A DNA stretch of 64,000 bases from an uncultured Alphaproteobacteria bacterium (GCA_944392555.1 CALXWZ010000001.1:65810-129809), one strand, 5' to 3'; positions 29,207 to 64,000 are shown, counted from the first letter of the stretch. Notes: generated from the sequence alone by a model not told the origin. Numbers and translations: made by a program.

Positions 29207-29234
29207 TCCAAAGGGGGAGGCGTTCTTTGAACGT

Positions 29235-36689: not shown

Positions 36690-36854
36690 TTGCAAAGAAG
36701 GGGAAGCTCGGATAGAATAAAGAGTATGAGGTGATGAAATAAGCGCTTCATCCGAGAGATTAACGATACGAGATAAGTATCAAAACGTGAGTTAACTCAT
36801 TCGGGGAATGGGAAGACGGGGCTTTCGGTAAATATAAAACAAAAGGAGAGAAAC
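36690..36854 (+). promoter_or_regulatory. Promoter TTGCAA-17-TAGAAT plus conserved structured 5' leader of about 130 nt, for pilin-like gene 1
   Basis: Block duplicated at 37981-38145. Hairpin ATGAGGTG..CGCTTCAT. 12-bp palindrome TGAGTTAACTCA. Conserved GGGGAATGGGAAGACGGGGCTTTCGG. AAAGGAGAG ribosome-binding site. Confidence 0.55.
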
Positions 36855-37328
36855 ATGAAAAGAACAAATGAATCAGGCCGTTCAATGGTTGAAATGCTCG
36901 GCGTTTTGGCTATTATCGGTGTTTTATCGGTTGGTGGTATTGCCGGTTACACAATGGCAATGAACCGCTATCGTTCAAACGAAATTATTGATATGGCAAA
37001 CAAATTGGCCGTTGTTGCTTTCTCGGCTCGTGAAACATACGCTGCAATGCACAATGGTGATTCCAATGGCTTTACACCGCCTTCGTTGACTACATCTGGC
37101 TTGTATACAAGTGATAAAATCAATGGTGCAACGTTTACGGCATTAACAAATCCGGCATCTTTCTTTACGGATACAGAATGCACAGACGTAGCAGATACAA
37201 CTGAATCTGCACGGAGTGTTAAAATGGAAATCAATTTTGATACAGAAAATGTCTGCAAAGCCGCTGCTTCAACATTGGGCACAACATGTGCAAGCAACAA
37301 AGTTACATTCTGCTCACGCAGCAGCTGA
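36855..37328 (+). CDS. Type IV pilin-like protein 1 (non-canonical prepilin leader)
   Basis: MKRTNESG|RSMVEMLGVLAIIGVLSVGGIAGY has Glu at +5 and a hydrophobic helix. C-terminal Cys pair CKAA..FCSR. Confidence 0.65.
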   Translation: MKRTNESGRSMVEMLGVLAIIGVLSVGGIAGYTMAMNRYRSNEIIDMANKLAVVAFSARETYAAMHNGDSNGFTPPSLTTSGLYTSDKINGATFTALTNPASFFTDTECTDVADTTESARSVKMEINFDTENVCKAAASTLGTTCASNKVTFCSRSS

Positions 37329-37367
37329 TTTGTTGAATATAAGAATTTCGTTTTTGAAAATTCCAAG

Positions 37368-37399
37368 AGGGGCGTTCGTTTTGAACGCCTCTTTTTGTA
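37368..37399 (+). terminator. Terminator after pilin-like gene 1
   Basis: GGGGCGTTCGTTTTGAACGCCTC followed by TTTTTG. Homologous hairpin after gene 2. Confidence 0.6.
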
Positions 37400-37571
37400 T
37401 GATAACGGGCGGAGATATCTTTGTTTAACCCGAGATATCATTGTTCAATCTGAGAGATGTCTTTCTCCCCAAGTCTGAGAGTGATCTTACTCCTCCGTTT
37501 GAGAAATGTTTGCCGTTCGTTTGAAAAACTGCGAATAACGGGGCATTTTAACGCTGTTCGATTGGAACGCT

Positions 37572-37690
37572 AAAAGCCGTCGCATTTTCGCCCGTTCGCG
37601 CGGGATATAAAAAGCCGTCGCATTTTCGCCCGTTCGCGCGGGATATAAAAAGCCGTTGCATTTTCACCCTGTTCGCGCAGGATATAAAAA
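37572..37690. repeat. Tandem direct repeat, about 38 bp x 3 (plus one degenerate upstream copy)
   Basis: gccgtcgcattttcgcccgttcgcgcgggatataaaaa repeated head-to-tail with no spacers. Confidence 0.8.
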
Positions 37691-37980
37691 GCGCAAAGCA
37701 CGCGATATTTTTACGCAAAAAAACAAGTGATAACTGCCCTCTGCCGAGAGAAGTGGGAGCAAAAAGCAAGCGCGGTTTTTATGCCGAAAAAGGCGTTGCA
37801 ATGTATTCAAATTTGATTTTGGATTAGGGGAAAGGCCGTAGACAAGGTTATTGACTTTTTGGTGCGTGCCAAACAGGTGATTATATTTTGCTGTTTCTGA
37901 AAAAAGAAAACCCCAATACCCAAAAAATCTAAAATTTCCCAAAAATTTAAATAAAAATTATATTTTTTATAAAAAAATAG

Positions 37981-38145
37981 TTGCAAACTTAAAAATTATT
38001 TAATAGAATAATAAGTATGAAGTGATGAAAAAGGCACTTCATCCGAAAGAATAACGATGCGAAATAAACATCAAAACGGGAGTTGACTCATTCGGGGAAT
38101 GGGAAGACGGGGCTTTCGGGAAACGAAAAAGAAAAGGAGAGAAAC
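37981..38145 (+). promoter_or_regulatory. Promoter TTGCAA-17-TAGAAT plus conserved structured 5' leader, for pilin-like gene 2
   Basis: Second copy of the 36690-36854 block. Hairpin ATGAAGTG..CACTTCAT. Confidence 0.55.
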
Positions 38146-38622
38146 ATGAAAAGAACAAATGAATCAGGCCGTTCAATGGTTGAAATGCTCGGCGTTTTAG
38201 CGATTATCGGTGTTTTATCGGTTGGTGGTATTGCGGGTTACACAATGGCAATGAACCGCTATCGTTCCAACGAAATTATTGATATGGCAAACAAATTGGC
38301 CGTTGTTGCTTTCTCGGCGCGTGAAACATATATGGCAATGCACAACGGTGATACTATACCAACATCAGATGTGCCGGATTTAGCGTCATCAGGGTTGTAT
38401 ACGAGCAGTGTAATTAATGGAGCAACATTTGAAACTCCTACGTTTTATTCTGATACAACCTGTACGACTCCAATAGTTGCTAGTACCAAAAATCAATCTG
38501 CACGGAGTATTAAAATTGTAATCAATTTTAATGGAAATGACAACGTATGCAAAGCTGCAGCTTCAACACTAGGAGAAGATTGTTCTGGCGGTAAGGTAGA
38601 GTTTTGCTCACGCGCCAGCTAA
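38146..38622 (+). CDS. Type IV pilin-like protein 2
   Basis: Start MKRTNESGRSMVEML at 38146, which is the second Met of track ORF 38083-38622. First 70 aa about 95% identical to gene 1. Variable centre. Cys pair CKAAASTLGEDCSGGKVEFCSRAS. Confidence 0.65.
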   Translation: MKRTNESGRSMVEMLGVLAIIGVLSVGGIAGYTMAMNRYRSNEIIDMANKLAVVAFSARETYMAMHNGDTIPTSDVPDLASSGLYTSSVINGATFETPTFYSDTTCTTPIVASTKNQSARSIKIVINFNGNDNVCKAAASTLGEDCSGGKVEFCSRAS

Positions 38623-38665: not shown

Positions 38666-38696
38666 GGGGCGTTCGCTTTGAACGCCTCACTTTTTT
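38666..38696 (+). terminator. Terminator after pilin-like gene 2
   Basis: GGGGCGTTCGCTTTGAACGCCTC followed by TTTTTT. Confidence 0.6.
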
Positions 38697-38708
38697 CCGC
38701 TTACTATT

Positions 38709-38718: not shown

Positions 38719-38947
38719 ACTCGCCTGCATGCACTGACCTTATCGCTTTCACGATGATGATTTTTCTATCCCCCTTTTTTACCTTGATTTCTGAATAAAT
38801 TAAAAAAGTTATCAATATGATATAAAAAAACTTGAACTTTTAATTTGAAAACAGTATAATGAACTATCACCGATATCGTCAGTTTGAATCGCCAGCCTTT
38901 AAAAGGCTGATTCGGGTGCGGGTCGGGGTTAGATAAAAGGAATTAAA

Positions 38948-39412
38948 ATGCAAAAAACAAATGAATCAGGTCGCTCAATGGTGGAAATGCTAGCCGTTTT
39001 GGCGATTATTGCCGTCCTGTCCATTGGCGGAACGCTGGGTTATTTGCTCGGTATGCGTCGCTATCGGGCTGATTTGGTTTTAGATGTTGCTTCAAAATAT
39101 GCTTCAACTGTCTATATGCAGTTTCAATCCTATAAAGCCAAGCATGGTGGCTCAGTTGTCGGGTTCACACCGGTAACGCTTGCCAATTCCGGCGTGAGTA
39201 TTGCGAATATGGATTCAATTAACGGCGTCGGGATTGCCTTAAATACGGCATATAGTGGTGGAAAAGAGTGTGTTGGCGGTATTTGTGAAAATGGGGTAAG
39301 TATCCTAATGTCGTTCCCGCAAGAGCAGTTGGAAATATGCAAAACAATTACGATTATGTTAAGCGTGGATAATACATGCCCCGATTTGGTTCGCTTCTTT
39401 CCGCAAAGTTAG
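38948..39412 (+). CDS. Type IV pilin-like protein 3 (divergent)
   Basis: MQKTNESGRSMVEMLAVLAIIAVLSIGGTLGY. C-terminal Cys-rich region CVGGICENG..CKT..C. Confidence 0.6.
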   Translation: MQKTNESGRSMVEMLAVLAIIAVLSIGGTLGYLLGMRRYRADLVLDVASKYASTVYMQFQSYKAKHGGSVVGFTPVTLANSGVSIANMDSINGVGIALNTAYSGGKECVGGICENGVSILMSFPQEQLEICKTITIMLSVDNTCPDLVRFFPQS

Positions 39413-39784: not shown

Positions 39785-41509
39785 TCATGCGTATGATTTT
39801 GTGGACTTGAATGATGAAGCAATGCAATGTTTTCTCATATAGGAATCGTATTGTTTTTTCTGTTCGGGAAATTTCTTGAAATAGGCCGATAATTCGGCAT
39901 TACTTTGATATTTCCCGCCATACCGCATAAACACCTCGGCATTCCGCGGATTAAACAAAATGGCATACGTGACAGGTGTAATCCCGCTTGCATTGGGCCG
40001 ATTGAGCAAAGCTTGAACGGCTTTTTTATCGGAATACGTGAGTAATTGCTTGACCATTTGATTCATCACGGCTGAATCGTATATATTATCGGCTGCCAGA
40101 TGAAAAACAGTTTCCCCTGCCTGAGTATTGCCGAAACTTCCCGTCAATAGTGTGGGGTTCGCCCCTTGCTTCATTAAATTGGCAACAACGCCTACATGCC
40201 CGTGTTCAACGGCGGCTTCAAGTAATCGCGCTCCCGTTTCTCCTGTACTACGCGCTGTTTTGGTTTTAAAGCCTTGTGTGTTAATTTCACTGCCGAAGTT
40301 GAGCCAACTGCTCATACGTTCCAATTCCGCAGGTGTTTTATTCGGTGTGTAAAGAGCGTCCATCATTGCTTGATAGGCCGTTTTCGGCGACATAACAGGT
40401 GTTTTCCCGCCGGCTTTTACCCCTATGCCCGCCAGTTCCGCAGGTTTCGGTGTTTTGGGCAATGTTAAGCCACGCACGGCCGGAATAGGCGGTGCAACCA
40501 TTTCTTTTCCGCGGGGGCTTATCGGTTGCTCTAACACCACGCCTTCCAACAACTCCTTGATTTGATACATCACCTCAATTTGCGCGGCACTGCGTTGAGG
40601 ATCCGTACATGTACCAAAAAAGTGCAACCTACTTGCTTCGCGCGCTCTTGGAAATCCGGTTGATGTGTCCAGAGGAATAAATTGTTTATTTACTTCCGCA
40701 TCAAACCGCTTTTTTTCGGCAGTTGAAATATGTTCGGGTGACCAGTGTATCCCTTCCGCAATTTTTCCGCCGATGAGCCGTTCATTATTTTCTTTGCGAA
40801 TATAGGGACTCATTATCCGAACAAAATCATTGATCATTTCAGGCGTCGGTTTCTTCTCAGGTGTTGCAAAATACACATTCAACGTATCTATGCGATTTGT
40901 TGTGTGGCAATCTACCGGAGATTTATATTTCGCCCCGTATTTTTCGGCAAACGCATCCATCGCGTCTACCCATTCAGGCGTGCAATTAACATTTGCCGTT
41001 ATCCGAAAAGAGGTTGCTAATTTGCTCATTCTGTTTTGCTGATAAGATTCCGATGTTCTCCATAACCAAGGGTTATCATCGTCACCGGTTGAGGCCTCCA
41101 CTTTCCCCGTGTTCGTTAACATCTTATGATAGAATGAATCTTCTTGTGCAATGCTGGGAAGGGTGGAAAAATGAGCATGTCTTAAGAATTGATAGTAAGA
41201 ATCACTTAAATGTATCAACACGGCATTCGTTAGCGGAAGAGGCGGAAACTCGTCGGCATTTGTCAACGAAAAAACACTCTTTGGCTGAAACTTCATTTCA
41301 ATCGGTGCGGAATTTGTTTTCTCGGATTTCGCCTGTTGCGAAATATGCTTCGTAAGGATTTGCACGATATACGAGGCATAGGCCGATTTTTCGTTCTCCT
41401 CACCCATCTGTCTATGCAATTTTTTCCAAAAGCGAAGATAGTTGGCATCTTCCGCCCTGTGAGAATATGTTTTAAGCCCCAGTTCATTAAACAAATCTAT
41501 TAAGTGCAT
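39785..41509 (-). CDS. Ankyrin-repeat protein without a signal peptide (candidate effector)
   Basis: 574 aa. N-terminal ~130 aa carry ANK-like repeats (GARLLEAAVEHGHVGVVANLMKQGANP ... ETVFHLAA). Large unknown C-terminal domain. Last gene of a 3-gene minus-strand operon. Confidence 0.55.
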   Translation of the reverse strand: MHLIDLFNELGLKTYSHRAEDANYLRFWKKLHRQMGEENEKSAYASYIVQILTKHISQQAKSEKTNSAPIEMKFQPKSVFSLTNADEFPPLPLTNAVLIHLSDSYYQFLRHAHFSTLPSIAQEDSFYHKMLTNTGKVEASTGDDDNPWLWRTSESYQQNRMSKLATSFRITANVNCTPEWVDAMDAFAEKYGAKYKSPVDCHTTNRIDTLNVYFATPEKKPTPEMINDFVRIMSPYIRKENNERLIGGKIAEGIHWSPEHISTAEKKRFDAEVNKQFIPLDTSTGFPRAREASRLHFFGTCTDPQRSAAQIEVMYQIKELLEGVVLEQPISPRGKEMVAPPIPAVRGLTLPKTPKPAELAGIGVKAGGKTPVMSPKTAYQAMMDALYTPNKTPAELERMSSWLNFGSEINTQGFKTKTARSTGETGARLLEAAVEHGHVGVVANLMKQGANPTLLTGSFGNTQAGETVFHLAADNIYDSAVMNQMVKQLLTYSDKKAVQALLNRPNASGITPVTYAILFNPRNAEVFMRYGGKYQSNAELSAYFKKFPEQKKQYDSYMRKHCIASSFKSTKSYA

Positions 41510-62600: not shown

Positions 62601-63776
62601 ATGATGAACAAAAAAGAGCTTATCACAAAAGATCTGGTTGAATTATTTAATATTTTTGATGATAATGTTCGATTGGTCGGGGGTTGCGTGCGCGATTATC
62701 TACTCGGCAAAAAGGTAAATGATTATGATTTGGCAACACCGCTTTGTCCAAAAACGGTTATTTCTCTTTTAAAACAAAATCATATTCCCGTTTACCCAAC
62801 AGGGTTGAAACACGGAACGGTAACGGCGGTATATAAAGGTATTCCTTATGAAATCACAACGTTGCGACGCGATATTTCGTCCGATGGACGGCATGCCGAT
62901 GTTGCGTTTGTGGATTCGTATGCAACAGATGCGCACAGGCGCGATTTCACCGTTAATGCGCTTTATATGGATAAAGCAGGCAATATTAGCGATTATACGA
63001 ACGGTTTGAAAGATTTGTCCGCGCGTAGAATCCGATTTATCGGCGAAGCGAATGCACGCGTGCAAGAAGACTTTTTGCGTATTTTGCGCTATTTTAGATT
63101 TTTGGCATTGTTCGGAACGAAAAGGATTGATGAAGAATCGTTATCGGCATGCCGAATCCATAAAAACGGCTTGTGCAGTATCTCGGTAGAACGAATCCGT
63201 GCGGAGATGATGAAGTTGCTCATGGGCAGATATGTGATAAATTCATTAAATTTGATGCAGGAAAACGGCGTGTTATCCGTTATTTTACCGAAAGCCGACG
63301 TAGGGCGCTTGGAGGCATTTTTGAAAAGTTATCCGCGTGCTGATAGTTTAATGCGTTTATCGGCATTAGTTGATTCTCCGAAAGACGTTGCGTGGAAATG
63401 GAGTAAAGCGGAGCGAAAGCAACTCGGCTTATACGGTGCAACGGTTCAAATCGGGAAAACGGAAGCCGAAAACCGCTATTTATTATGGAAAATCGGAAAG
63501 CCGGCTTATTTATTTCATTTACATATATTTCAACTAAATCATTCACTATCGGAATTAGAATTTCAAAAGTTCAAAAAAATCAAGATGCCTGTTTTTCCGA
63601 TTCGGGGAAGTGATTTATATGATTTGGGGTGGCGAGGTGCCGAAATTCACCGACAAATGCAACGAGCGGAAAAATTTTGGGTAGAGTTGAATTTTAGTCG
63701 GAAAAAAAGACTTGTCATTGAAAAACTTTTGTCTTATAATGAGAAAAAACCAGATGAGGGGAAGGATAAAAAATGA
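62601..63776 (+). CDS. cca: CCA-adding tRNA nucleotidyltransferase / poly(A) polymerase family
   Basis: LVGGCVRDYLLGKKVNDYDLAT ... RRDFTVNAL. Confidence 0.8.
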   Translation: MMNKKELITKDLVELFNIFDDNVRLVGGCVRDYLLGKKVNDYDLATPLCPKTVISLLKQNHIPVYPTGLKHGTVTAVYKGIPYEITTLRRDISSDGRHADVAFVDSYATDAHRRDFTVNALYMDKAGNISDYTNGLKDLSARRIRFIGEANARVQEDFLRILRYFRFLALFGTKRIDEESLSACRIHKNGLCSISVERIRAEMMKLLMGRYVINSLNLMQENGVLSVILPKADVGRLEAFLKSYPRADSLMRLSALVDSPKDVAWKWSKAERKQLGLYGATVQIGKTEAENRYLLWKIGKPAYLFHLHIFQLNHSLSELEFQKFKKIKMPVFPIRGSDLYDLGWRGAEIHRQMQRAEKFWVELNFSRKKRLVIEKLLSYNEKKPDEGKDKK

Positions 63777-64000
63777 GAGCAGTATCTTCGGAATCGGGCA
63801 GAAGTATGGTAGAGATGTTGGGTGTTATCGCCATTATCGGGGTGATTGCCGTTGGCGGAATAACGTCTATGTCGTATGTAGATTCATATTTCAGAACGAG
63901 CGCTACTTTGTTGGAAATAGATCAAGTTTCGCGCGATATTGATGATATGTGTTCCTGGTCCAGCAGTTATTCGGATTGCTTGACGGGTTATACAACGGAT
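63773..64000 (+). CDS. Type IV pilin-like protein 4 (5' portion; runs off the window)
   Basis: ATGA overlap with the cca stop. MRAVSSESGRSMVEMLGVIAIIGVIAVGG. Confidence 0.55.
   Translation, partial: MRAVSSESGRSMVEMLGVIAIIGVIAVGGITSMSYVDSYFRTSATLLEIDQVSRDIDDMCSWSSSYSDCLTGYTTD

Follow-up and report, generated by a model that had tools for sequence, protein, structure and literature searches.

The 64,000-nucleotide stretch of DNA analysed here (GCA_944392555.1 CALXWZ010000001.1:65810-129809; hereafter the window, G+C content 40%) comes from an uncultured Alphaproteobacteria bacterium and contains two neighbouring pilin-like genes, each preceded by a copy of a conserved, structured leader of 131 nt. 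Each copy appears to be the untranslated 5′ part of a pilin messenger RNA (mRNA) that is transcribed separately, carries a single gene and has a near-consensus sigma-70-type promoter and its own terminator. Both leaders belong to a family of structured leaders on pilin mRNAs that has not been described before and, as far as sampled, occurs in a single clade of uncultured gut Alphaproteobacteria; we are confident that their structure is real. An earlier note on this DNA had labelled the two leaders a candidate cis-regulatory RNA, and this label holds good, since each is a conserved structured 5′ leader that is specific to pilin-like genes. The two units consist of the following features, in which P1 to P4 denote the helices of the leader, type A the leader type and R1 the covariance model described below.

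36690-36718, plus strand: promoter 1, with the -35 hexamer TTGCAA (36690-36695), a 17-nt spacer and the -10 hexamer TAGAAT (36713-36718); an A/T-rich tract lies upstream
36724-36854, plus strand: leader 1, predicted 5′ untranslated region (UTR) of pilin-like gene 1, type A, 131 nt; R1 score 167.9 bits, fold z -2.6, 99-100% identical between strains
36726-36751, plus strand: P1, an 8-bp hairpin (ATGAGGTG/CGCTTCAT) that starts 7 nt past the -10 hexamer, at the predicted transcript 5′ end
36752-36828, plus strand: three-way junction domain, in which P2 (CCGAGAG, 36752-36758, paired with CTTTCGG, 36822-36828) encloses P3 and P4
36765-36781, plus strand: P3, a 5-bp hairpin (GATAC/GTATC)
36791-36817, plus strand: P4, with an outer stem GTT/GAC (3 bp), a 2x2 internal loop, an inner stem CTCATTC/GAATGGG (7 bp) and a GGG triloop (36803-36805)
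36829-36854, plus strand: A-rich unpaired tail of 26 nt with the Shine-Dalgarno (SD) sequence AAGGAG (36843-36848), followed by the AUG
36855-37328, plus strand: pilin-like gene 1, 157 amino acids, beginning MKRTNESG/RSMVEML (the slash separates residues -1 and +1)
37368-37397, plus strand: terminator-like hairpin of gene 1, GGGGCGTTCG-TTT-TGAACGCCTC followed by TTTTTG, read from the sequence
37981-38009, plus strand: promoter 2, TTGCAA (37981-37986), 17-nt spacer, TAGAAT (38004-38009)
38015-38145, plus strand: leader 2, 131 nt; R1 score 163.7 bits, fold z -3.1
38017-38139, plus strand: parts of leader 2, namely P1 38017-38042, P2 38043-38049 with 38113-38119, P3 38056-38072, P4 38082-38108 with the GGG loop at 38094-38096, and SD 38134-38139
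38146-38622, plus strand: pilin-like gene 2, 158 amino acids counted from the ATG at 38146
38666-38698, plus strand: intrinsic-terminator-like hairpin of gene 2, found by the terminator scan (10 pairs, then a T-run)

The duplicated promoter TTGCAA-17-TAGAAT, which the earlier note had placed ahead of both genes, is present at these positions, and in a promoter scan no other sigma-70-like site appeared on the coding strand 5′ of either gene. The terminator-like hairpin of gene 1 is homologous to that of gene 2, the only copy that the terminator scan listed. Because each gene is followed by its own terminator-like hairpin, the two genes are taken as separate single-gene transcription units.

The minimum-energy structure is identical in both window copies. 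In copy 1 the tip of P4 reads TC-GGG-GA (36801-36807). The SD is predicted to be open, with unpaired probabilities of 0.89-0.90 in the window leaders (0.86-0.89 for the region from -25 to +3), and SD and AUG are predicted to be open across lineages as well (0.6-0.98). The terminator scan found no terminator-like site in either leader, and no CCC partner for the GGG loop of P4 was found by eye in the leader or in the early coding sequence. An alignment of the two leaders over 134 positions has 17 differences: 11 of them are at unpaired positions, three change G-U to A-U, two jointly replace an A-U by a G-C pair and one breaks the terminal pair of P3. Five of the six stem changes thus preserve pairing. 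The hairpin which had been singled out for such changes is P1, and the description was accurate: ATGAGGTG/CGCTTCAT in copy 1 corresponds to ATGAAGTG/CACTTCAT in copy 2 (38017-38042), with two G-U pairs changed to A-U. Taken alone, the compensatory evidence from the two sequences in the window is weak. Their comparison says little because the copies are recent duplicates that also share 5′ coding sequence; the two units are 91.7% identical across 350 nt, which take in the leader and ~215 nt at the start of the coding sequence, and the window has exactly two occurrences of the 29-nt block TTCGGGGAATGGGAAGACGGGGCTTTCGG (0/100 shuffles). Support for the fold comes from other lineages, not from the two copies.

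The nearest relatives of the window are metagenome-assembled genomes (MAGs) labelled "uncultured Alphaproteobacteria" from human, pig, rabbit and roe-deer gut. A search for homologous leaders, as the earlier note had proposed, found the type-A leader 5′ of pilin genes in five lineages: the window species (loci L001, L038, L042, L057); L044 and L056; L051 and L055; L006, L009 and L018; and an extra copy, L009:1-117(-). Seven distinct type-A leaders from the five lineages, each folded alone, gave the same minimum-energy architecture. The covariance model R1, built from six close type-A copies, recovered all other type-A leaders at 41-88 bits. A MAFFT alignment of all type-A leaders misaligned P1 and was replaced by a model-based alignment, which was checked against the single-sequence folds. 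A pattern scan of the metagenomes (TTCGGGGAA, a 35-65 nt gap, then a pilin start) gave 19 matches. The single genuine one was L031, a short contig with the same sequence as the window; the others had arisen by chance, and the pattern was abandoned.

In the alignment of 14 type-A sequences 97.6% of the cells are paired. Double changes occur in 10 of 30 pairs, compared with 4.7 ± 1.4 in shuffles, none of 500 shuffles reaching 10, and sliding the partner by 1-3 columns leaves at most three double-change pairs. Covariation is seen in P1, P3 and both parts of P4. Three of the eight pairs of P1 show double changes across lineages, and so do three of the five pairs of P3, the stem of which is wholly replaced (GGTGGG/CCTACT) in the extra L009 copy. 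P2 is 100% paired and varies through G-U/A-U wobble changes only. The loops of P1 and P3 vary freely, as expected for purely structural hairpins. In all leaders of types A and B, 5-7 nt separate the -10 hexamer from P1, which puts the hairpin at about +1 of the predicted start.

Type-B leaders, found in rabbit MAGs, are matched by R1 with E-values of 4.5e-4 to 0.3, and all of them lie directly 5′ of pilin genes. P1, P3 and P4 are in register with R1, P2 is missing, and RNAalifold applied to type B alone predicts three hairpins in the same order. Two further types were distinguished, C (L058-L067) and D (L059, minus strand). The element common to types A to D is P4, a hairpin of 6-14 bp, and its tip is invariant in the four types: a U-A and a C-G pair closing a GGG, AGG or GGA triloop. 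For a comparison of P4 free of model fitting, an ungapped segment of 31 nt with the loop at its centre was taken from each of 16 distinct leaders, representing the four types. Pairing holds in 88% of the cells of these segments. Of the 12 stem pairs, 9 have changed on both sides, whereas the two apical pairs do not vary. Double changes are found in 43 cells, compared with 16.8 ± 3.8 in shuffles; the covariation score is 0.559 versus 0.227 in shuffles (0/500 reach the observed value), and slid versions score at most 0.287. P4 is the core of the leader. The constraint on the sequence of its tip suggests recognition by a specific factor.

These data bear on a reading at the level of DNA, raised in the earlier note as a protein operator, according to which the conserved inverted repeats bind a transcription factor downstream of the promoter. 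P4 in type B is a near-perfect palindrome of ~27 bp, and the sequence TGAGTTAACTCA, claimed as a 12-bp perfect palindrome, is indeed present and perfect in copy 1. As a conserved unit, however, it does not hold: the site reads GGAGTTGACTCA in copy 2, GACGTTATCTCA in L044, GATGTGATTTCA in L051 and TTATAATTATTCA in L006, so that neither copy 2 nor any other lineage retains the palindrome, and it was rejected as an operator. The 3′ half of TGAGTTAACTCA is the 5′ strand of P4. What is kept in P4 is the pairing and not the sequence of the half-sites, 9 of 12 pairs changing on both sides. Many pairs are moreover G-U, which correspond to A-C mismatches on the opposite strand; the structure is therefore strand-specific, as expected of an RNA rather than a DNA element. 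We consider operator function quite unlikely. The block before the ribosome-binding site, which had been described as invariant, consists of the 3′ strand of P4, the junction and the 3′ strand of P2. It is invariant among close relatives, whereas elsewhere only TTCGGGGAAT and CTTTCGG are fixed.

The conserved three-way junction formed by P2, P3 and P4 could also be a riboswitch that binds a small molecule such as cyclic di-GMP (c-di-GMP) and switches pilin expression. A c-di-GMP-II riboswitch reportedly controls pilA1 in Clostridioides difficile, and the P2-P3 junction (A/G)NUAAC is fixed even where every pair of P3 has changed. Control by a known riboswitch, the other suggestion of the earlier note, found no support in the Rfam scans, in which no family, GEMM (RF01051) and c-di-GMP-II (RF01786) included, matched the whole window, the 3.1-kb region, either leader alone or ten related loci at the gathering score. 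With each 151-nt leader sequence scanned alone at E<=10 only noise was obtained, the best hits being 8-18 bits against thresholds of 30-100; c-di-GMP-I-GGC scored 11.4 bits (threshold 59) in copy 2 only and was absent in copy 1. There is no expression platform either, neither a terminator nor a helix masking the SD. P2 and the junction are missing from the type-B leaders, which keep P1, P3 and P4, and the P4-P2 junction varies (GGGG, AGGA, AGAA, UAAA). A riboswitch is thus an unlikely explanation.

The association of P4 with pilin genes was scored by means of a TC-RGR-GA tip on a stem of at least 5 bp. Such P4-type hairpins are present 5′ of 27 of 39 distinct pilin genes, compared with 2 of 219 other open reading frames (ORFs) and 0.2% of shuffles. 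P4-like sites away from pilin genes nearly all have short stems of 5-7 bp and are mostly, it appears, inside coding sequence. Just one has a long stem, of 9 bp, on the minus strand of L009, and it belongs to the extra type-A leader copy, which the end of the contig truncates. The idea that P4-like hairpins mark further genes was considered and rejected, the off-pilin sites being apparently chance occurrences or, at 29234, a terminator.

A G-rich hairpin tip at some distance from the SD is reminiscent of targets of CsrA/RsmA. P4 and the SD would then form a binding pair on which a CsrA dimer represses translation, as in the flagellin leaders of Campylobacter and Bacillus or in the Salmonella fimA leader. 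The GG-containing tip is ~40 nt 5′ of the GGA in AAGGAG (36843-36848, 38134-38139), which would supply the second GGA at a distance that a dimer can span; the variant tips UCGGGGA, UCAGGGA and UCGGAGA all contain GGA if the 3′ stem is counted, and filament-subunit mRNAs are classic CsrA targets (PMC4894983). On the other hand, an exposed ANGGA loop is not found: the loops are GGG in the window and GGG, AGG or, in a few cases, GGA in relatives, and in the flaA leader of C. jejuni a change from GGA to GGG abolishes CsrA binding (PMC4894983). The loop has three bases rather than the usual six. A tblastn search found no csrA in the window and 39 loci (297 kb, a small part of any genome), and CsrA is uncommon in Alphaproteobacteria. 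On balance control by CsrA is improbable.

The G-rich block at P4 and P2 recalls a different type of element, a G-quadruplex that promotes variation of the pilin, like the one ahead of pilE in Neisseria. The G3+N1-7 pattern is matched four times in copy 2, with G-tracts between 38094 and 38120, and the C-terminal halves of the pilins are hypervariable between strains. Copy 1 has only three G3 tracts, the pattern is confined to copy 2 and its close orthologues (the tracts are missing from L044, L051, L006, L009 and type B), and the G-tracts are engaged in P4 and P2 pairing, which covaries. This possibility is extremely remote.

Selection on the leader was assessed by comparing the window strain with L001, L038, L042 and L057, to which it is 95-98% identical in housekeeping genes. 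The leaders are 97-100% identical between strains, the neighbouring intergenic DNA 78-89% and the C-terminal halves of pilins 1 and 2 (37070-37328, 38361-38622) 69-79%; the genes flanking the pilin genes are 95-100% identical. By these comparisons purifying selection acts on the leader, and the exposed part of the protein is diversifying. The variability of the C-terminal halves suggests diversifying selection or cassette exchange. The strain comparison also bears on the null explanation that the leader has no function and that its similarity reflects recent duplication or gene conversion between paralogues, the fold being incidental. The extension of the duplicated segment into coding sequence, and the many pilin paralogues with near-identical 5′ ends in these genomes, are what this explanation predicts. 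But orthologous leaders are more conserved than the surrounding housekeeping genes and intergenic DNA, and lineages of diverged sequence still have the architecture and P4, with compensatory changes. We therefore regard a functionless leader as very unlikely.

The window contains three tandem pilin-like genes (36855-37328, 38146-38622, 38948-39412) and the beginning of a fourth at 63773. The N-terminal sequence NESG/RSMVEMLGVLAIIGVL is common to all four proteins. MKRTNESG/RSMVEMLGVLAIIGVL has the features of a class III signal peptide, i.e. a short basic leader, Gly at -1, Glu at +5 and a hydrophobic helix, and G8 (Gly -1) and E13 (Glu +5) are invariant across 28 homologues. Residue +1 is Arg, which is unusual, and the proteins score 14.5-17.4 bits against the Pfam family N_methyl, under the 21.2 cut-off. 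An AlphaFold model (predicted local distance difference test score, pLDDT, 88) shows an N-terminal helix of 59 residues and then a beta domain, and its top four fold matches in the PDB are type IV pilins with weak E-values of 0.06-1. The label pilin-like is thus reasonable, not proven. The family is very large, with >7,600 homologues, none of them bearing a name, from never-cultured gut Alphaproteobacteria. None of the 15 window ORFs scanned against Pfam, a minority of those in the window, was recognised as a pilus machinery gene.

How the leader could act can be outlined as follows. P1, at the predicted extreme 5′ end of the transcript, would shield the mRNA from 5′-end-dependent decay and so provide the long half-life needed by an abundant filament subunit. 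Its position at about +1 of the predicted start would be that of an ompA-type stabiliser, a hairpin near the 5′ end. The ribosome-binding site, predicted to be open in the A-rich single strand, would leave translation on by default. The tip of P4 would be the docking site of a putative trans-acting factor, most likely an RNA-binding protein, possibly a small RNA, which might tune translation or decay of the pilin mRNAs as a group. P2 and P3 would serve as a scaffold, which in this lineage keeps P4 within a three-way junction. We put the chances of this mechanism as a whole, a pilin-mRNA leader with P1 as stabiliser and a P4 tip read by a putative factor, at about even. A more specific version, in which the tip is the site of a dedicated pilin-mRNA regulator that couples the synthesis of the many pilin paralogues to pilus assembly or host signals, is possible but doubtful. 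If true, the regulator would be a pilin counterpart of FliW-CsrA or FlbT flagellin control, which is not known to have been described for type IV pilins.

Several points weigh against the reading of the leader given here. The sampling of type A covers only about five independent lineages, its alignment is biased towards the structure of the model to which it was fitted, and there are no double changes in P2. The transcription start is a predicted one. Common descent of types A and B is plausible but not secure: the type-B model R2 finds only the type-A leader of L044 at E <0.01 and does not find the window copies, and the part shared by the two types may be the P4 motif only, with no common descent. 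Twelve of the 39 pilin upstream regions are without a P4-type hairpin; these include second genes of two-gene units and the type of gene 3, which has a different leader. Like csrA, hfq and fliW were not found in the tblastn search of the window and 39 loci, although at that coverage the result is uninformative.

Other signals around the leaders were considered. A sigma-54 promoter was rejected, the GG-to-GC spacing being 11 nt in copy 1 and the GG being absent in copy 2. Upstream ORFs in the leader were discarded, as the short ATG frames in P1 differ among copies and lineages, and so was a TTG-extended ORF (38083-38622), which is closed in copy 1. The spacer of promoter 2 contains a CtrA-box-like TTAA-N7-TTAA (37989-38003), which may be a chance occurrence in A/T-rich DNA; it is kept in copy 2 of L001, and promoter 1 is without it. 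Between pilin genes 1 and 2 there is a 38-nt tandem repeat (37572-37692, 3.2 copies, 95% matches), the unit of which is not present in the orthologous spacers of L001, L038, L042 and L057.

Pilin gene 3 (MQKTNESG...) has a promoter-like site of its own, TTGAAC-17-TATAAT, in the region 38832-38947. Its leader is 86 nt long and different, folding into one long hairpin without the P4 motif, and is 93-100% identical between strains. The fourth pilin-like gene (MRAVSSESGRSMVEML...; region 63713-64000), which starts at 63773, has a short leader and a promoter-like site TTGTCA...TATAAT, and is truncated by the end of the window. A large ankyrin-repeat protein gene (39785-41509, minus strand) adjoins the pilin genes on the opposite strand, and an ankyrin-repeat gene also stands beside pilin genes in L044, L049 and L058-L064. 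In one lineage a T2SSF-family gene (platform protein of the PilC/GspF type; L052 502-1638 and L053 489-1625) is directly 5′ of a pilin gene with a type-A leader.

The hypervariable C-terminal halves suggest a surface filament under host or phage pressure, and the conserved pilin-specific RNA element would be a first handle on the regulation of these filaments. The leader would add to Rfam a family which that database lacks, defined by a hairpin in which the tip is fixed and the stem covaries freely, and would be useful in metagenomes as a marker for expressed 'first' pilin genes. If a dedicated factor exists, it would represent a new post-transcriptional circuit for pilus biogenesis.

Among known systems the 5′ UTR of Escherichia coli ompA is similar in layout. 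It is also a ~130-nt leader on the mRNA of an abundant envelope protein, with a 5′-terminal hairpin, further hairpins and an open A/U-rich stretch at the ribosome-binding site; this and other 5′-terminal stem-loop mRNA stabilisers are said to have been described by Emory, Bouvet and Belasco in 1992. There is no sequence or structural homology between the two, ompA has no counterpart of the invariant P4 tip, and the start site of the pilin leader is predicted from sequence. The C. difficile pilA1 c-di-GMP-II riboswitch likewise precedes a type IV pilin gene as a structured leader; the present one differs from it in matching neither RF01786 nor RF01051 and in having no terminator or other expression platform. 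The CsrA-bound flagellin leaders (C. jejuni flaA, B. subtilis hag) and the Salmonella fimA 5′ UTR (PMC4894983) share with the pilin leader a filament-subunit mRNA, a conserved hairpin with a G-rich tip 5′ of a GGA-containing SD, and compensatory changes. They are unlike it in their ANGGA hexaloop, in place of which the pilin leader has a GGG or AGG triloop, and the pilin leader is three times longer. To our knowledge, no CsrA is known for this lineage. In Caulobacter, as far as the citing article relates, FlbT acts on the 5′ UTR of the flagellin mRNA fljK (Anderson and Gober 2000, cited in PMC4894983). By that description the common feature would be that in an alphaproteobacterium the mRNA of a filament subunit is controlled through its 5′ UTR by a protein dedicated to it; the subunit concerned is flagellin, not pilin. 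In relation to these systems the pilin leader is a new RNA family, absent from Rfam, of a known general kind, the structured mRNA leader.

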